Below are positions 5,363 to 37,477 of a DNA stretch of 37,713 nucleotides, piece by piece. The first letter of the stretch is position 1, and each line of letters begins with the position of its first letter. The notes under the pieces are model-generated. The model ran no database searches and was not told where the DNA came from. It saw nothing but the letters and a program-made list of their open reading frames with translations. The position numbers were made by a program, and so were the translations under genes. This stretch comes from a virus (taxonomy: Duplodnaviria > Heunggongvirae > Uroviricota > Caudoviricetes), in IMG/VR virus record IMGVR_UViG_2802429240_000007. One strand, 5' to 3'.

Positions 5363-6243
5363 TAATACCCTATCGCTGTCCAGTACATAACGCCGTTATT
5401 CTCGCTGTTGAATGTCGCACCTGCTGCTGATAATGATTTCAGGGAAATAGAGTAATCAGCACGGGTATATGCGTTGGTAATAGTGATGCTGGTACATGCT
5501 GACGGAAATGATATCGGAAACGTCAGCCCGGCACCGGCATTGCCGAGATACCCCCACTGAATAATCACCCCGGTGGACGTGTCCTTAAACCAGCCATTAC
5601 CGGCTTTTGACGCCGTGTTTTTTTGCTGGTAACGGTTGTCACCTTCAGTTTGTGACATTCCCGCAGAAATCGTGATATCGCCGGAGCCGTCAAAGAGCAC
5701 ATTGTTAATCCTGCGGGCCGTCTGAAGGCGGGTTGCCGTTCCGGCGTTGCCGCTGATGCTGTTGATGGTGATATCCGAAGTCAGGGCCATGCCGTTGACC
5801 TTACGCGCTTTCGGCACACCGCTGATGTTATCCAGAAACAATTGTTTATTCGGGATATCTGCGCCGTTACGGTCTTTTGCCAGTCTGGCATTTGCGTTAT
5901 CCATCGCAATTTTTACCGCTTTGGGCGTGGCTGCTTCTGTTTCTGATTCACTGTTAACAGCACTGTTAAGCTGCACTACGCCTTTTTGCGTCAGCGATGC
6001 ATCCGGGACTTTCTGGCCAATAAACGAGGTCAGCGCCTCAACCAGCTGGTTTTGTTTTTTCGGATCCGGGGTTACGCCAGCCTCTTTAAGGACGTTAATC
6101 ACCTCCTGCTGCAAATCGCGCGTTGCTTCCTGATGATTATTCATATATTCAGCGGTAACAATGGTTCCCTCTATCCCCTGAGTCGGGTCACCATCATGAA
6201 ATAACTTGTCCGGTGTATTAACCGGAGTCATTAAATTCTGCAT
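5362..6243 (-). CDS. Tail fibre protein (short, Mu S-position)
   Basis: 293 aa; contains the ATPKAVK fibre motif also present in the large fibre; Gly/Ser/Thr-rich C-terminus; coupled start/stop with both neighbours. Confidence 0.6.
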   Translation of the reverse strand: MQNLMTPVNTPDKLFHDGDPTQGIEGTIVTAEYMNNHQEATRDLQQEVINVLKEAGVTPDPKKQNQLVEALTSFIGQKVPDASLTQKGVVQLNSAVNSESETEAATPKAVKIAMDNANARLAKDRNGADIPNKQLFLDNISGVPKARKVNGMALTSDITINSISGNAGTATRLQTARRINNVLFDGSGDITISAGMSQTEGDNRYQQKNTASKAGNGWFKDTSTGVIIQWGYLGNAGAGLTFPISFPSACTSITITNAYTRADYSISLKSLSAAGATFNSENNGVMYWTAIGY

Positions 6244-28438: not shown

Positions 28439-28750
28439 TCAGAAGCGGGAAAGGGAATCCGGCGTAATAAGAGATTTATTACAAAGCGGAGCAGAGGCGT
28501 TCGCCTTTTCCATAGCTGCGCGCATCTCGTTTTCACTGGCGATGATGTCAGCAATGGCACACTGCAACGCTTCTTCCTGAACAACCATATCCGGTTGTTC
28601 AGCCATTCGGTTTAGCTGGCTGGCCAGATTTTTCATATAAGCGAAGCGGCGTCCGGCAGCATCCCGGGCCTGCTCTGAGTAGGCCGTATACTCGCCAAGT
28701 GCCGTATAGTTGGTCATAAGTGTCTCCTTTTTCTGAGGCCTATTAATCAA
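28439..28750 (-). CDS. Hypothetical protein in the Mu C (late activator) position
   Basis: 103-aa ORF (possibly starting at MTNYTALGEY); no helix-turn-helix obvious by eye. Confidence 0.4.
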   Translation of the reverse strand: MINRPQKKETLMTNYTALGEYTAYSEQARDAAGRRFAYMKNLASQLNRMAEQPDMVVQEEALQCAIADIIASENEMRAAMEKANASAPLCNKSLITPDSLSRF

Positions 28751-29210
28751 AAAGCCCCACCTGGGTGGGGCTTTTCAGCGAAGTCTGTTTTTGTCGTCGG
28801 TGTATCAGTTGCCATGCGTACCGATCTGAAATCCCGTAACGGGGACAGAGCAGTGCCAGCGCCTGCCGGTGTGAGCATCCGTCTTTTACATGCTGCTGTA
28901 AATCAGCCATAAAACGGGTGTTACGCAAGGCACGTAACGCATGATCACAACGGGGAATGTAAAACGGTGCACCGCCAAGAAAGCGGATCAGTTTGTTGAT
29001 TTCGTCTTCGGTCAGCACGTCATGTAACAGGGCATGGACACCGCCGGTGCGTCCGGCGTGTGCGCCGGTTTTACCGCTTAACGTCACGCCACCAAAAGAA
29101 CGAATCAACCGGGTCAGGGCGGGGAAGCCAATCACGCTAATCAGTTGCTGCACGGAATCGGGCAGCAGTGCCTGCGCATCGCGAAGATCTGTTTCACTGA
29201 AGGTCTGCAT
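28743..29210 (-). CDS. mor: Mor/C-family transcription activator
   Basis: 155 aa; C-terminal HTH-like segment (RYGISDRYAWQLI); directly downstream of the GemA-like gene as in Mu. Confidence 0.75.
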   Translation of the reverse strand: MQTFSETDLRDAQALLPDSVQQLISVIGFPALTRLIRSFGGVTLSGKTGAHAGRTGGVHALLHDVLTEDEINKLIRFLGGAPFYIPRCDHALRALRNTRFMADLQQHVKDGCSHRQALALLCPRYGISDRYAWQLIHRRQKQTSLKSPTQVGLFD

Positions 29211-29305
29211 GATGGCGTCTCCGGTAGTAACTTACTGTTATTATAGCCATACATGATCGCCTGTACAGACCACAAAAAAGCCCCTGCAAGGCAGGGGCTG
29301 ATTCT

Positions 29306-29719
29306 TTATTGTTTACGTGCTGCTCTGGCTCGTTTTCTGGCGTCTTTTGTCAGCGCCACCATCACCCCGAACAGTTGATCATCTGTCAGCCATTCGATCA
29401 CATGTTGCTTATACATGTGAGATGCCAGTCCTTCCGCATATGCCCAGGAACGACCGGCATCAGCCAGCAACGCTTCAATTTTGGATAATACCGATTTTCT
29501 GCTCATTGCCACACGGGGGCGGCGACCTTTACCGGCGGGGGCTTTACGCGGAAATCCCTGTTCGTGCATGTATTCCCGGATGATGCGCAGTTCATCGAGG
29601 TTGCAGCGTGTGGTGCTGGTTTTACCGGTCAGTCGGGCCAGCGTCTGGCGATAAAGGGCATCATCCCACCCCAGATACGCCTGACCGGCTTTAATGGCCC
29701 CGATCATCTTTTTCAGCAT
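29306..29719 (-). CDS. gemA: GemA-like regulatory protein
   Basis: Start taken at the MLKKMIGAIKAGQ ATG (29719); character of the GemA family; precedes mor. Confidence 0.65.
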   Translation of the reverse strand: MLKKMIGAIKAGQAYLGWDDALYRQTLARLTGKTSTTRCNLDELRIIREYMHEQGFPRKAPAGKGRRPRVAMSRKSVLSKIEALLADAGRSWAYAEGLASHMYKQHVIEWLTDDQLFGVMVALTKDARKRARAARKQ

Positions 29720-30005
29720 GTTTGTTATCCTCAAAACGCACGGTAAAACGTGAAACGCCAATCCCTGACAGGAACGCGGCGGCACGGTCAAGAGACAGCC
29801 ACGTCTTGTAATCGCCACGGCGTTCCTGTAGAAAATAGGACACCCCGGCGTGGCGATTCACAGCGAAGAGGTGATACACACCACCGAACCGCTGCACGAC
29901 GAACTCATCCACGCCACCGCTTTCAGCCTGTTGCCTGAAAGCTGCCATTCCGATTTGTTCAATCTTCATAATGACCAAAACACTACTTTTGGCAGACCAA
30001 AACAT
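29691..30005 (-). CDS. Hypothetical early protein
   Basis: 104-aa ORF whose 3' end overlaps the gemA start. Confidence 0.35.
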   Translation of the reverse strand: MFWSAKSSVLVIMKIEQIGMAAFRQQAESGGVDEFVVQRFGGVYHLFAVNRHAGVSYFLQERRGDYKTWLSLDRAAAFLSGIGVSRFTVRFEDNKHAEKDDRGH

Positions 30006-31816: not shown

Positions 31817-32527
31817 TTACACCCTCCCCAGTGCCAGCGTTTTGTTGCTCTGACCATTAACCCCCTGATGCAGCCTGGCGTTTTTCCCGGCGATAAAACC
31901 GGCAGTAGCGGCAAACTCTGCACCCCGGCACGCTTTAGCTGTGCGCATATCCCCGTCGCGCAGCCCTTTAGTGCTGTGCAGGTTCTTTCTGTAAAGCTCA
32001 AGGAGGTTTCTTTCTTCCGGTGAGACGTCATACACTGCAATTACTTTTCGCGCTCCGAATACCCAGCCTTCACAGAACTGGTCGCCACGGGCTACCCGCG
32101 TGGACGGGCCGCAACGTTTGCAGTGTTTATCCTGATATTTCTTGCGCTCTGCCATCATCTGACGGGAAAGCACATCAAACGCGTAAGCCGCGATTTCCGG
32201 GCGGCTGTCAGGGCCATAAAAACGCACGTAACGTTTGAGTGAACCAGAGGCCCGGTACTCACCGGAGATATAACACTTAACACCGAAGGCATTGCAGACC
32301 AGACCACACAGAACGTGCATATAACGCGGCGGCGTACTGGCATCACTCGGCGCACCCGCGCTTGCCGCTTCCTGAATGTCGAACAATTCAGCGCAGTTTT
32401 CGCTGATACCATGCTGGCGCATATAAGCCTGGGCTTTTGCAATAGCGTTAGCGGCTTCTTCCGGGCTTGATGTCCCTCTGGCAAGGCGCAACAGTTTTTT
32501 GATTTTGGCAATGTATTTATCTTTCAT
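31817..32527 (-). CDS. DUF2786-like phage protein with Cys-rich C-terminal half
   Basis: 236 aa; N-terminus KIKKLLRLARGTSSPEEAANAIAKAQ is typical of that family; C-terminal region has CxxC-type cysteines. Confidence 0.55.
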   Translation of the reverse strand: MKDKYIAKIKKLLRLARGTSSPEEAANAIAKAQAYMRQHGISENCAELFDIQEAASAGAPSDASTPPRYMHVLCGLVCNAFGVKCYISGEYRASGSLKRYVRFYGPDSRPEIAAYAFDVLSRQMMAERKKYQDKHCKRCGPSTRVARGDQFCEGWVFGARKVIAVYDVSPEERNLLELYRKNLHSTKGLRDGDMRTAKACRGAEFAATAGFIAGKNARLHQGVNGQSNKTLALGRV

Positions 32528-32615
32528 GGTTGTAACTCATTGTTTTTGATCAACTTATAACCGCAAGACACTTGTCATAATCGCTGCCCCAACATGCCCA
32601 ATCAGGAGTTAAAAA

Positions 32616-32834
32616 ATGATTGATGATGAAATTGCGGCAGCAATTACTGCTAACAAAGCTGCGTGGAGCTTTCTGGTTAAACAGCTTTCAGAAAATGGCT
32701 GTCTGAACCTCAGCGCCCTGGATTCTGAATTACGCAACTTCCAGCACGGCCTTCAGGAACGTGGGGAGTTCGTTCTGGCTGCGGCGCTGGATGAACATCT
32801 GCTGTCGATTGAGAACTGGTCGCAAGACGATTAA
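32616..32834 (+). CDS. Small acidic protein (72 aa), antisense to the early operon
   Basis: ATG preceded by CAGGAG 7 nt upstream; followed by terminator-like hairpins; the only plus-strand gene with an RBS inside the prophage. Confidence 0.5.
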   Translation: MIDDEIAAAITANKAAWSFLVKQLSENGCLNLSALDSELRNFQHGLQERGEFVLAAALDEHLLSIENWSQDD

Positions 32835-32913
32835 AACAAACGATTGTCAGATTAATTTCGCGGGCGAATTTTTTTTGCTTGGCGATATTCATAAATAAAC
32901 TTCCTCAGATTCA

Positions 32914-32950
32914 GGCGTAAGCCAGCCCCGGCGGGTTTACGCCTGTTTTA
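32914..32950 (+). terminator. Rho-independent terminator after the antisense small gene
   Basis: GGCGTAA ... TTACGCC stem with GC-rich interior, followed by TGTTTT; a weaker hairpin plus T8 tract at about 32855-32878. Confidence 0.5.
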
Positions 32951-32974
32951 AATAACAATTAAAATTGAATTAAA

Positions 32975-33166
32975 TTAATGCGCTGCTTTCAGTGTTTCGA
33001 CTTTAACGAAATAAGGCTCGACATTAATTTCAACCACACAACCACATTTAAAATCTCTGGCAGGTGAAACGGTTTTCACCACCCGACCACCACGCACCGC
33101 CTGATGTGCAATGTGCATGAAACGAGTACCAGGCGGATATAACTGATTAAAGCGTTTCGCGTTCAT
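32975..33166 (-). CDS. Hypothetical small early protein
   Basis: 63-aa ORF in the early operon. Confidence 0.4.
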   Translation of the reverse strand: MNAKRFNQLYPPGTRFMHIAHQAVRGGRVVKTVSPARDFKCGCVVEINVEPYFVKVETLKAAH

Positions 33167-33380
33167 GAATCGGCTTCCATCCTTTCAGGTGAGCATTAGC
33201 ACAGAACGCTGCCCGGTGTTCCGCCCAGATGCGGCGCAGGGTGCTACACGGGCTTTGTGCTGCCTTACGCCACAGCTTTTCAGCCTCAGCATAATCGCCG
33301 CGTTGTTCTGCTCTGGACGCGCCCAGCGAATACGCTGCGCAACGGTTCCCGGCCCTGTACTCTTTGATATCCTGATGCAT
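33147..33380 (-). CDS. Small early protein, possibly ANR-family regulator
   Basis: Start at the MHQDIKEYRAGN ATG (33380), just after the upstream stop; family assignment from memory and uncertain. Confidence 0.35.
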   Translation of the reverse strand: MHQDIKEYRAGNRCAAYSLGASRAEQRGDYAEAEKLWRKAAQSPCSTLRRIWAEHRAAFCANAHLKGWKPIHERETL

Positions 33381-33381
33381 G

Positions 33382-34026
33382 TTAGACCCCTGCAATATCA
33401 AGCGGGATTGCGCGGTATTCAGCAGAATCACCGACGCGCTCATACACGCGGATATAGCTTCTGCTGCCAATTACCTGGACGGCTTCACCAATCAGCGTCA
33501 TGGCGTTATTCCAGCGTTCGTCCTCAATTTCGAGGCGACGCAGAGCCAGAACGCGCCCGGTGTTAATGTTGCCTTCCTTGTCCGTGCTGAATGCCTCACT
33601 GATGATGGCTTTGATTTCTGGGCGTGCACCTTCCGTCCAGTCAGCCAGGCAGTCATCAATCAGTGCCTTCGCGGTCTGAATGCGTTCATCAAGCGCAATA
33701 CGGTCCTGCATGGCGCGCTGAATCTTGTAACGCCCGTCAAAGCTGTAAAGCGTGATATTCCCTTTTTTACCGCCTTTCACAGCGCCGTATTTCTCCGCTG
33801 ACAGGTCAATAAATGCCTGAATATCACCAAACGCACGCAGTTTCAGTTCACGCAGTGAGGCGGAGGCAGCAATCACCATCTCCACAAGCTCACCGACCAA
33901 CTGCTCACGGTCTCGGTCAATATCTTTGATAAGACTTTCAGGCGTCATCACACCACGGGCATCAACCCAGTAGCCTTCCTGCACTTTATTTTTTGTATAT
34001 TGCTTAACTTTATTTTCAGTCGTCAT
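33382..34026 (-). CDS. DUF3164-like Mu-type early protein
   Basis: 214 aa in the semi-essential early region. Confidence 0.5.
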   Translation of the reverse strand: MTTENKVKQYTKNKVQEGYWVDARGVMTPESLIKDIDRDREQLVGELVEMVIAASASLRELKLRAFGDIQAFIDLSAEKYGAVKGGKKGNITLYSFDGRYKIQRAMQDRIALDERIQTAKALIDDCLADWTEGARPEIKAIISEAFSTDKEGNINTGRVLALRRLEIEDERWNNAMTLIGEAVQVIGSRSYIRVYERVGDSAEYRAIPLDIAGV

Positions 34027-34283: not shown

Positions 34284-34523
34284 TCATTGCCATACGACGG
34301 TGCAGCCGTCGATACAGGACGTTTTCACCACGCGGCGCAGGCCGCTGAATGTCTGGATGATTTCCGTTACCGGCCATACAGGACCACCCACGGGCGGGCA
34401 GGCATAAACCACAGGTAAACGGTGATGCTGTCCCGTTACACGACCGCCAGTGGTGTGGATGGCCACACGGGCACGGGAACGGACGGCGTTAATGGTCTGC
34501 TTGTCCATCGTCTTGTTCTCCAT
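34284..34523 (-). CDS. Hypothetical small early protein
   Basis: 79-aa ORF; start overlaps the B stop. Confidence 0.4.
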   Translation of the reverse strand: MENKTMDKQTINAVRSRARVAIHTTGGRVTGQHHRLPVVYACPPVGGPVWPVTEIIQTFSGLRRVVKTSCIDGCTVVWQ

Positions 34524-35416
34524 CAGTGAATTAACATTTCTGCGAATTTATCAATGGCCTGCACACTGACCGGTGCATCGCTGATATCACAAATCCGGTA
34601 CACACCGCGCGCCAGTTTGAAGAGGCGGCGGGCATTACCCAGCGAGCGTGCGTAAAGCGCCTCGCTGATTTCCGGTTCTGCTGCTTCCGGCATCAACCCG
34701 GTAGCTATCTGGTTAAAATCTTCCTGCGACAACGTATCGCCCAGGTTAAGCGCCAGCGCCACACGGCTGTATAACTGGGCGAACTCACCACGACGCCCCT
34801 TAAGGTTAATCAGAAGACGAGGCATACCCGCCAGGACAACCCCGATACCCGCTTTGTCATGCAGACGACGCAGAACCTCCAGTGCGCGATAGGGGAGCAG
34901 TTCAGCCTCGTCCACCATCAGCAGGCGACCGGAATCACGCAGTTCGCGCACACAGGCATCTATCAGTTCGTGAATGTTGCCGCGAACCTTTACCCCCAGC
35001 TGGCGGCACAACTCCTCAAGCAGTGTTCTGGCTGTATAGCCCGGGTCAGCCTCAATCAGGACCGCATCCCGGTTTCTGGCGGCGTATTCACGCAGAATCA
35101 TTGTTTTGCCAAGACCTGCCGCGCCATACAGTACGCAGATTTCACATTCCAGGTGAGCATAGGCCAACACCTCCAGTCCTTTGGCAGCCATACCGGTGGC
35201 AACAAATTTCGCTTTAATACGGCGGCTGTTTTCCTTTTCCCGCTCACGGGTCACAAAGGCAGAAATGCGTTCTTCAATATCAGCCATATCGCCCTGATAT
35301 TTACCCTGTAAATACTGGTTGATAACGGCGCTGCTACGACCAATAGCACGGGCGACGTGGGTTTGCGTATAGCCGCGACGGGCCATTACGTCATTTAATT
35401 GCGTAATTAAACTCAT
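34523..35416 (-). CDS. DNA transposition ATPase (Mu B-like)
   Basis: 297 aa; N-terminal HTH-like segment; Walker A GAAGLGKT; Walker B-like LLMVDEAE. Confidence 0.85.
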   Translation of the reverse strand: MSLITQLNDVMARRGYTQTHVARAIGRSSAVINQYLQGKYQGDMADIEERISAFVTREREKENSRRIKAKFVATGMAAKGLEVLAYAHLECEICVLYGAAGLGKTMILREYAARNRDAVLIEADPGYTARTLLEELCRQLGVKVRGNIHELIDACVRELRDSGRLLMVDEAELLPYRALEVLRRLHDKAGIGVVLAGMPRLLINLKGRRGEFAQLYSRVALALNLGDTLSQEDFNQIATGLMPEAAEPEISEALYARSLGNARRLFKLARGVYRICDISDAPVSVQAIDKFAEMLIH

Positions 35417-35434: not shown

Positions 35435-37477
35435 TTAACGGTTGTTTGTGCCGTTTTTCTTTAAATTGCGCTCGCGTTCAGATGCGAATAAATAAAGTTC
35501 TTCTTTTTCCTTTTTCTCCTGGCGTTCCAGTCCATATCCCAGATTAAACTCAGGCTTCTGCGTAATAGCCGGGGTAAGCTCGCGTTTAGCCTCTTCGATT
35601 TTCTGCGCGGCCCGTGCAATGCGGCCTCTGACGCGTTTCTCCAGTTTTTGCTCGATAACTGGTTTAGCGAAGGCATCAACCTTGTTACCGTTCCAGATGG
35701 CATCGCAGATATAAGAGCCATCAGCCCGCCGGACAATGACACTGTTTGCATCATGAATATCGTAACTGACCCTGACTTCATTCCCGTGCTCTGCGGCCAG
35801 CTCATACGAGTAATAAATATTGTTGAATAACTGAATTTCCCCGCGAAATGTTTTGCGCGTCACTTCCGGTCTGAACATTTCATGCAGTTCTTCCGGCGAC
35901 AGGAAATCAATTTCAACATTCTGCTCTTTTATCAGTTTCCGGCGATACGCTGCCGGGCTGTAATATTCGCCATCCTCTTTGCGGGGAAGGCTGCTGTGTG
36001 GCCGGTTGTTATAGCGTCTGACCTCCAGTTCTATGGCTGCCATCAGTTGCTCAAAGGTGGGGATTTCATCCCTCGCCTTAACCTGCCGTTTTGTCAGTTC
36101 TTTCCCTTTGTGGGTGGCCTTAATGGCTGACTGCATAATCCGTTGCTGCATCATTACGGTTTCCTTGTCTGCTCCCTTTGAGCAGTACGTCTGGAAACTC
36201 AGGGCCACATCCCGGGGAATTTCCTTGTTAAGCCTTTCAATCACCCCGCGCCCCTGCGGGTTACCTGGTATCCCCGTGTGATGTTCCACACCCAGCCGGG
36301 GGAGAATCCCGGTAATATCGGCATCAAGAACCCGGTTTTTTTCGCCGCCCCCGTTATCGGAGTAATAAATCAGCGGTATCCCGTGCTGTGCCATGCCGTA
36401 ACGCAACGCATCAGCAACGGCTATCACGTTCTCCGACAGGGACAGCGACCAGCCCACAACAAAGCGTTGCCCCGCATCCATAACCAGCGTCACTTCTGGC
36501 CGGAAAATATTGCCGGTCAGTGGGTTAAACGCGGTCATCTTCATACAGTGACCATCCCCGACCCATACCGCATTAACCGGTAGCGATGTCCAGTCGCGCC
36601 GCACAAAGGGATTGAGCGAACGCCAGGCTGAACCGGTGGAGCGGAAACGCTCCTTAACAATCACCGGGACGTTGCTTAACACCCGTCTTACTGCGTGAAC
36701 GGAAGGCAGTGCTGCCAGCATTCCCGCATCATTCGCGTGTTTTTCATGCCACCAGGCTGAAAACTCGCGATACGCATATTCAACGGTCGGGCGCTTCCAT
36801 GAGCGATAGAACATAAAGAAATCGCTCAACCACCAGACCTGCTCCCACGGAGTTCCCTTATGATGACCGGGAGCCAGTAACGCCAGTAACTGATTGGCAT
36901 CACCGCGCGCCATCAGCCAGGCGGAATACCATTCCTGTAAACTCCCTGTACTGACGCCAGTTCGCTTACCCTGCCGGGCATTGGCGGTATTACCTGCCAC
37001 AATAACGCGCTCTGGCAAAGCCTCCTGGCGGATACCATCAACGATGTGTTTTATCGCTGCCGTCCTGGACATTCCTGCGTATTCACGCAGTTTATGCACT
37101 TCGGTAGCCAGCAATATCCGCGCATCAGCGATGGCCTTTTGCTTGTCGGTCAGTGCCTGAACTTCGCGTAATGCCAGTTCCGGGCATTTGACCATCACTT
37201 CCAGTTCATCGCGAACGGTAACGTTTTTAACTGCCTTCTGCTCAACCACGGCAGGCAGTTGTGCATCTTCCAGAACCTGATGGGTCAGGCGCTTACGTAA
37301 AACCTTCTGCGCTTCAGCGGGCAGACAGTCGATGTGATACTCGAATGCTTTGGTGCCTTCACGCTTGCGCTTCCATTCCGGGTGCGTCTCTGTGATCCGA
37401 TTGAGCGTCCAGCGCACCCCCTGAACTGTACCGGGCAAACCAGGAAGACCGGCCAGCTCATTGGCTGAATAAAACAT
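35435..37477 (-). CDS. DDE transposase (Mu A-like)
   Basis: 680 aa; N-terminal DNA-binding region and central catalytic core of MuA-like size and layout; directly between ner and B. Confidence 0.9.
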   Translation of the reverse strand: MFYSANELAGLPGLPGTVQGVRWTLNRITETHPEWKRKREGTKAFEYHIDCLPAEAQKVLRKRLTHQVLEDAQLPAVVEQKAVKNVTVRDELEVMVKCPELALREVQALTDKQKAIADARILLATEVHKLREYAGMSRTAAIKHIVDGIRQEALPERVIVAGNTANARQGKRTGVSTGSLQEWYSAWLMARGDANQLLALLAPGHHKGTPWEQVWWLSDFFMFYRSWKRPTVEYAYREFSAWWHEKHANDAGMLAALPSVHAVRRVLSNVPVIVKERFRSTGSAWRSLNPFVRRDWTSLPVNAVWVGDGHCMKMTAFNPLTGNIFRPEVTLVMDAGQRFVVGWSLSLSENVIAVADALRYGMAQHGIPLIYYSDNGGGEKNRVLDADITGILPRLGVEHHTGIPGNPQGRGVIERLNKEIPRDVALSFQTYCSKGADKETVMMQQRIMQSAIKATHKGKELTKRQVKARDEIPTFEQLMAAIELEVRRYNNRPHSSLPRKEDGEYYSPAAYRRKLIKEQNVEIDFLSPEELHEMFRPEVTRKTFRGEIQLFNNIYYSYELAAEHGNEVRVSYDIHDANSVIVRRADGSYICDAIWNGNKVDAFAKPVIEQKLEKRVRGRIARAAQKIEEAKRELTPAITQKPEFNLGYGLERQEKKEKEELYLFASERERNLKKNGTNNR

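Follow-up and report, generated by a model that had tools for sequence, protein, structure and literature searches.

The stretch of DNA analysed here (37,713 nucleotides, called the window below) contains a Mu-like prophage, which lies on the minus strand and adjoins a host ABC-permease gene at 1-987. From the transposase side, the genes for MuA (35435-37477) and MuB (34523-35416) are followed by a run of small early genes, including a DUF3164 gene (33382-34026), a minus-strand gene for an ANR-family regulator (33147-33380; NCBIfam ANR_neg_reg, NF033650, E 3e-15) and a minus-strand gene of 63 aa (32975-33166). Further on lie a DUF2786/DUF7168 early gene (31817-32527, minus strand, identified by its Pfam matches), GemA (29306-29818), Mor (28743-29210) and the lysis and structural genes. 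The 63-aa gene and the DUF2786/DUF7168 gene border a gap of 447 nt, and inside this gap, on the opposite strand, there is a 72-codon ATG ORF (32616..32834, plus strand), divergent from the DUF2786/DUF7168 gene and co-inherited with it. Its product would be a small acidic protein (13 D/E vs 4 K/R by our own count from the sequence) with four predicted helices.

Some neighbouring features were also observed. The ANR (AraC negative regulator) gene lies inside the early operon, two genes from the 72-aa gene; its listed ORF, which begins with TTG, has 107 aa, and the start is probably the ATG at 33380, giving 77 aa. A perfect inverted repeat, AAAAGCCCCACC/GGTGGGGCTTTT (window 28750-28775), sits at the 3' end of mor (28743-29210), overlaps its last codons and has the look of a bidirectional terminator. 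A second perfect inverted repeat, AGCCCCTGC/GCAGGGGCT (window 29279-29299), lies between gemA and mor.

The 72-aa gene and its protein family

The initial annotation had described an acidic 72-aa plus-strand ORF with a good ribosome-binding site, convergent with early transcription, and our analysis agrees on each point: a Shine-Dalgarno sequence, AGGAG (32604..32608, plus strand), is placed 7 nt before the ATG, and the gene runs against the transcription that comes from the transposase side. It had also been called the only credibly coding plus-strand gene of the prophage. This holds within the window, because each of the other long plus-strand ORFs that were tested in the prophage lacks matches of its own and overlaps a minus-strand gene with a phage-family match.

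The 72-aa protein is identical to a hypothetical protein of E. coli E2348/69 (UniProt B7UGF1; RefSeq WP_000564495.1), annotated as such in this strain and in other E. coli genomes. The exact sequence is present on 598 contigs of the protein collection, and the ORF of the window is intact and represents the commonest allele. While a word-indexed search returned close relatives only, an exhaustive HMMER search recovered full-length relatives of 75-77 aa with 37-61% identity. Profile searches delimited an unnamed family of about 20 clusters, with members of 72-77 aa, found only in Enterobacterales (E. coli, Salmonella, Serratia and Trabulsiella). In the 16 members of 72-77 aa, the N-terminal motif AAAIxANKxAW..L...L shows no variation. 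A remote member, the 86-aa E. coli protein WP_105456248.1, lies in the same slot (hhalign probability 88.5%) and extends the range of the family to 72-86 aa; across this range A8, A9, I10, A12, N13, A16, W17, L20 and L24 are invariant or near-invariant. This is a real small-protein family, previously unnamed. Note that the gene for WP_105456248.1 (1222-1482, plus strand, in locus L019) occupies the slot in some E. coli prophages and was seen on 126 contigs.

The family is under selection at the protein level. In seven pairs of homologues, which include non-phage contexts (Serratia islands), pN/pS was 0.16-0.43 in the plus frame, with most changes at codon position 3; the same comparison gave 1.3-3.7 for the antisense frame. 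Moreover, GC skew is positive over 32500-33000 and negative in the flanks, and the G+C content of the same interval is 0.385-0.48, compared with 0.53-0.57 in the flanking genes. AlphaFold2, run with a 16-sequence alignment, predicted four helices with a pLDDT of 88.7. Given the homologues of the same length, the pN/pS values of 0.16-0.43 and the reversed GC skew, the 72-codon ORF is, as far as the sequence can tell, a genuine protein-coding gene, far beyond chance. Inside the E. coli lineage, plus-frame substitutions are few, and most of them are non-synonymous.

The slot, its hairpin and its losses

Wherever a homologue (28-64% identical) was recovered in a Mu-like prophage, it fills the same slot in the same direction, antisense to the early operon and between a hairpin and the divergent DUF2786/DUF7168 gene. 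The hosts of these slot-type homologues are E. coli, Salmonella enterica and Serratia fonticola, and they also occur in unassigned assemblies and in metagenome and viral contigs. The divergent intergenic region measures 87-92 nt across the Mu-like loci (88 nt in the window); in one lineage it reaches about 260 nt and carries an extra 59-aa minus-strand gene. The content of the slot varies among prophages. It holds the small plus-strand gene in the window and in loci L001-L003, the hairpin followed by DUF2786 in L020, and a DUF7448 gene in L021.

Across these mosaic phages the small protein and DUF2786 rise and fall in identity together. Between L007 and L008, for example, the small proteins are 100% and the DUF2786 proteins 98% identical, compared with only 41-48% for MuA and MuB. 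Between L012 and L013, on the other hand, DUF2786, DUF3164, MuB and GemA are more than 90% identical and the small proteins (6001-6228) only 29%, which indicates that the allele was swapped within a conserved frame; the L013 allele is closer to the Serratia type (55-57%). As a separate observation, L013 has genes with T6SS Hcp and Tlde1 domains between its Mor region and its lysis genes (1325-2183), which may be effector cargo.

A second subfamily stands alone, with unrelated flanks, in IS-rich Serratia islands and related metagenome contigs. The neighbours of these stand-alone homologues include a PaTox/nigritoxin-like toxin, glycosyltransferases and Mig-14. The Serratia-island copies are also under purifying selection, and since no Mu genes accompany them, the protein has a function that needs neither the Mu operon nor DUF2786; for the same reason it is the protein itself, and not just the act of transcription, that is selected.

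Two candidate roles were considered in the light of these neighbourhoods. Homologues that stand alone, with no DUF2786 gene, weaken the idea that the protein works as a pair with DUF2786. A role as immunity protein or chaperone for the large toxin encoded upstream of some homologues was rejected: Serratia odorifera has an unrelated protein in the upstream position, the flanks show no conservation and the neighbours differ in other islands. The toxin gene itself, upstream of the non-phage homologue in L014 (2-3637), lies in an IS-rich island and encodes a composite protein of at least 1,211 aa that matches a Photorhabdus PaTox protease-like domain (6hv6, E 1e-99) and Vibrio nigritoxin (5m41, E 9e-42).

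On the 3' side of the 72-aa gene there is a G+C-rich hairpin, GGCGTAAGCC...GGTTTACGCC (32912..32945; arms 32912-32927 and 32930-32945), of about -23 kcal/mol; the 126-nt 3' region that holds it has a z-score of -3.7. Hairpins of -17 to -24 kcal/mol occur in all the Mu-like loci, where the element is nearly invariant and better conserved than the 72-aa gene. Its T-run is only TGTTTT (32944-32949), within the tail UGUUUUAAAU, which gives four consecutive U at most, and a consensus terminator scan made no call. The plus-strand tails of the relatives read AUAGUUAAAU, AUUAUUUAAAU and AAUAUUUAAAA, with a weak U-tail in Serratia and in L012-type loci; overall the plus-strand tail varies between fair, as in the window, and poor. 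On the minus strand no U-tract follows the hairpin; instead there is always TGAAT, then a ribosome-binding site and then an ATG.

The initial annotation had taken this hairpin for the gene's own terminator. The hairpin is real, and in the window copy it probably stops the plus-strand transcript, but it is not specific to the gene. The E. coli prophages that lack the plus-strand gene keep it, followed directly by DUF2786 (L020) or by the DUF7448 gene (L021), and in L003 two copies (2615 and 3690) flank an inserted two-gene cassette. Its distribution and context show it to be a general element at junctions of the minus-strand early operon, one that was not acquired together with the 72-aa gene. 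In support of its marking a cassette junction, the minus-strand TGAAT, ribosome-binding site and ATG always come next. It could serve in the processing or stability of mRNA, or be a hot spot for recombination. As a reusable cassette boundary, such a conserved hairpin helps to explain the shuffling of the semi-essential early region. Note that in L021, whose hairpin lies at about 1058-1083, a second and different hairpin (GGCGCAG...CTGCGCC) precedes DUF2786 in the same context of TGAAT and ribosome-binding site.

The gene is frequently lost in E. coli. The region is carried by 58 of 5,426 complete E. coli genomes, and the gene is intact in eight of these (four being E2348/69 assemblies), deleted in 35, and replaced or absent in the remaining 15, which have kept only the hairpin and have another cassette or none in the slot. 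The deleted class comprises the genomes that align only from query position 168 or 174 onward. Compared with the window, most E. coli relatives have lost a 169-bp segment (32526..32694) between the 8-bp direct repeats ATGGTTGT (32526-32533) and ATGGCTGT (32695-32702). From the alignment, codons 1-27 of the plus-strand gene are missing from the deleted copies, together with its ribosome-binding site and candidate promoter; the deletion is the commonest state of the locus in E. coli (35/58). The 72-aa gene is thus dispensable for maintenance of the prophage, to judge from these genomes, and selection on it in E. coli may be weak since most copies there have lost it. The initial annotation had named disruption of the ORF in close relatives, in a region otherwise conserved, among the observations that would refute its reading. 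Such disruption is what we found in these 35 genomes, and it speaks for dispensability rather than for a spurious gene, because distant relatives keep the gene under purifying selection.

Expression signals and possible roles

Candidate signals for independent expression are present at the locus. Before the ATG, a GGAG, GAGG or AGGA motif was found in every homologue examined. Upstream there is a candidate promoter, an extended -10 element TGTCATAAT (32573..32581, plus strand; hexamer CATAAT 32576-32581), which lies 35 nt upstream of the ATG. The relatives have a similar element: TGnCATAAT or TGTAATAAT is placed at -42 to -46 from the ATG in the E. coli, Salmonella and L012/L027 lineages, and TAGAAT or GATAAT occupies the same -10 position in the Serratia-type loci (L006, L017) and in L013. 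No good -35 accompanies the extended -10 at 32573-32581, and a consensus scan that requires a -35 did not call a promoter. By its position and recurrence this element is a candidate for the gene's own promoter.

The divergent intergenic region also contains a palindrome, TTGATCAA (32546..32553), with a GATC (Dam) site, about 20 nt from the DUF2786 start codon. The motif yGATCAww is present at the same distance from this start in the window and in six other loci (L006, L007, L012, L013, L017 and L019). A search in seven loci for a repressor-operator-like sequence common to the promoter region of the small gene and the c-ner intergenic region gave nothing above shuffled controls, and Rfam had no match over 32300-33200.

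The initial annotation did not recognise the protein, and our profile, defence and structure searches likewise gave no functional lead. The 72-aa protein had no match in Pfam (E <= 0.1), NCBIfam (E <= 0.01), PHROGs or PADLOC; fold searches gave no informative match, and the family profile matched PDB sequences at chance level only. A literature search for the accessions and the locus tag found no mention of the locus.

The joint explanation that we favour, and hold to be somewhat likelier right than wrong, is that the 72-aa gene would be a stand-alone accessory gene, an old resident of its slot in a Mu-like prophage clade of Enterobacterales, expressed in the lysogen and acting in inter-phage conflict or host modulation. 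Its product is modelled as a small acidic four-helix protein, presumably cytoplasmic. A sigma-70 promoter of the gene's own, with an extended -10, would drive transcription opposite to that of the early operon, with a start near 32588 and an end at the pre-existing operon hairpin near 32945. With a promoter of this orientation the product can be made in the repressed lysogen; the transcript would be produced while the early promoter is repressed, and head-on early transcription would cut it after induction. The target would be a component of the host or of an incoming phage, and not the neighbouring DUF2786 protein, since homologues are under selection in Serratia islands without Mu genes. The likeliest role, at a guess, would be to act through protein binding in conflict between phages or in modulating the host, as superinfection exclusion, defence or anti-defence would. 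A role in conflict fits the deep allelic diversity, the replacement of alleles between near-identical phages and the frequent loss.

Several points count against this explanation, among them the mostly non-synonymous plus-frame substitutions and the frequent loss in E. coli described above. The scan did not call the putative promoter, which has no -35, and the terminator is a borrowed one whose U-tail is poor in several relatives. No homology relates the protein to characterised exclusion, defence or anti-defence proteins. Moreover, residence in one slot since the phages diverged is unlike a typical recent moron and could point to a role in the phage cycle.

A rather unlikely alternative is that the function lies at the level of RNA or transcription, with convergent transcription and antisense RNA braking the early operon and the protein being secondary. 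Such an RNA would extend over 32890-32906, where the minus-strand ribosome-binding site and ATG lie, and over the leader of the segment from DUF2786 to gemA-mor, and it would limit leaky read-through to Mor in lysogens, as the lambda oop RNA does against cII. In all cases the gene is indeed antisense to the early operon and placed upstream of DUF2786, GemA and Mor; if its transcript stops at the hairpin, its extent would include the conserved minus-strand ribosome-binding site and start codon. The 169-bp deletion, moreover, removes the putative antisense promoter together with the untranslated gap, so that the minus-strand stop lies 13 nt from the DUF2786 start. However, the protein is under purifying selection even where there is no Mu operon to regulate, deletion variants and prophages lacking the gene are common, which argues that a brake is not needed, and no operator-like sequence is common to this region and c-ner. 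Note that an RNA-level function can coexist with a function of the protein.

The minus strand of the slot also has an ORF of 60 aa, MNIAKQKKFAREINLTI... (32892 to 32710), whose ATG lies 21 nt after the hairpin, behind GAGGAAG (32900-32906), and which is antisense to the last 125 nt of the plus-strand gene. It is clearly unlikely, although several features would fit it, that in E. coli this ORF is or becomes a functional early cistron while the plus-strand gene decays, or that the two form an antisense dual-coding pair. An equivalent ORF of 55-81 codons is open in the same phase in every Mu-like locus, and all lineages conserve its ribosome-binding site and an ATG placed 18-23 nt past the hairpin. 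The plus-strand gene does not reach the first 17-18 codons of this ORF, which follow a loose pattern, (R/K)E(I/V)xx(T/A)I, and vary in length by whole codons. The 169-bp deletion leaves the ORF exactly intact, its stop being 13 nt from the DUF2786 start codon, and RefSeq annotates it in some deletion variants (WP_157839748.1, WP_140431899.1). Furthermore, in 13 E. coli haplotypes pN/pS was 0.30 in the minus frame vs 1.09 in the plus frame, and the four variable sites in the first part of the ORF are all synonymous, at minus codon position 3. These values come from about 20 variable sites, in haplotypes that are mostly deletion variants in which the plus-strand gene is already dead, and with such small numbers the signal of minus-frame selection in E. 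coli is a lead, not a result. Outside E. coli there is no constraint on the antisense frame (pN/pS 1.3-3.7, vs 0.16-0.43 in the plus frame). The minus-strand products diverge, with low-complexity Pro/Ser/Gln-rich tails of variable length, and they have no PHROG or PADLOC match, while the plus-strand ORF of the window is intact and of the commonest allele.

It seems improbable that both strands of the 32.5-32.95 kb segment form one coding unit kept in this slot of Mu-like early operons, in which a plus-strand protein of the lysogen and an antisense early cistron, starting at the conserved junction of hairpin, ribosome-binding site and ATG, would be expressed in opposite states (lysogeny and lytic growth) with mutual interference, and in which the minus frame would have come under selection in E. 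coli after the deletion of the plus-strand gene. If true, this would be a case of gene birth by antisense overprinting. Finally, the proposal that the early operon has an untranslated spacer here, with the 72-codon ORF arising in it only by chance or as a shadow frame, is scarcely credible and, as far as sequence analysis can do so, already refuted: the family is narrow, the first searches found no matches and blastn and tblastn against 50,697 phage genomes found none encoding a homologue, but the distant homologues keep a constant length at 28-64% identity, purifying selection acts on the plus and not on the antisense frame, the structure prediction is confident, the Shine-Dalgarno sequence is conserved and the gene is also present outside phages.

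The locus is of interest for several reasons. Early operons of the Mu type are usually described as one-directional, and here a backwards gene holds a fixed position across E. coli, Salmonella and Serratia. The fixed slot, the deep allelic diversity and the frequent loss make it a good candidate for a lysogen function such as exclusion, defence or prophage control. The gene is, moreover, present in the standard pathogen strain EPEC E2348/69, where it is easily tested.

Comparison with known systems

Prophage morons, as defined for lambdoid phages, are independently transcribed extra genes placed between conserved phage genes, and the initial annotation had recognised such a layout here, with lysogenic conversion, exclusion or anti-defence as possible roles. 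Most of it stands. Like a moron, the 72-aa gene is an extra gene between conserved neighbours, present or absent among relatives; its G+C content is below that of the flanks, and it has its own ribosome-binding site and a promoter-like -10 element. It lies on the opposite strand, an orientation that would permit expression while the surrounding operon is repressed. What does not hold is the terminator of its own, since the hairpin belongs to the operon. Also unlike a moron, the gene is not a recent sporadic insertion: it has stayed in its slot as its copies diverged to 28-40% identity, at roughly the pace of DUF2786. We describe it as a moron-like accessory gene of the prophage, borne on the opposite strand, dispensable and diverse.

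Antisense non-coding RNAs of about 70-80 nt are present in the early operons of lambda (oop, against cII) and P22 (sar, against ant). As occurs with these RNAs, the transcript predicted here would be short and convergent within an early operon, would end at a stem-loop and would be complementary to the early mRNA. It differs in its predicted length, about 360 nt, and in carrying a protein gene that is selected even outside phages.

The protein also resembles the small regulators Hha/YmoA and ANR/Aar in its size of about 70 aa, its all-helical prediction, its confinement to Enterobacterales and its presence on prophages and islands. In contrast to them it has no Pfam or NCBIfam match, and no such structure appeared among the fold matches; ANR_neg_reg of NCBIfam matches the neighbouring gene (33147-33380) but not the 72-aa protein. 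Nor did PADLOC, PHROG, Pfam or NCBIfam assign it to a family of superinfection exclusion or anti-phage defence.

A closer parallel is found in the transposable Pseudomonas phage Fc02, in which a 7.9-kDa protein encoded on the lysogen strand, in antisense overlap with an early gene, excludes superinfecting phages (PMC9936078). Its gene, olg1, is transcribed in the lysogen, and both olg1 and the early gene it overlaps (gene 10) exclude superinfecting phages (PMC9936078). Like Fc02, the phage analysed here is a transposable phage of the Mu type, and the gene for its small protein, of about 8 kDa, also faces the early operon from the other strand; in both cases the gene overlaps an early-strand ORF in antisense. 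The position is different: olg1 adjoins the repressor gene, lies on the repressor transcript and overlaps ner and gene 10 (PMC9936078), whereas the gene in the window lies, by our estimate, about 5.5-6 kb from the left end, between the DUF3164/ANR block and DUF2786. The two are likened by layout and not by sequence, so an exclusion role for the 72-aa protein would be suggested by analogy only, with olg1 of Fc02 as its closest functional precedent.
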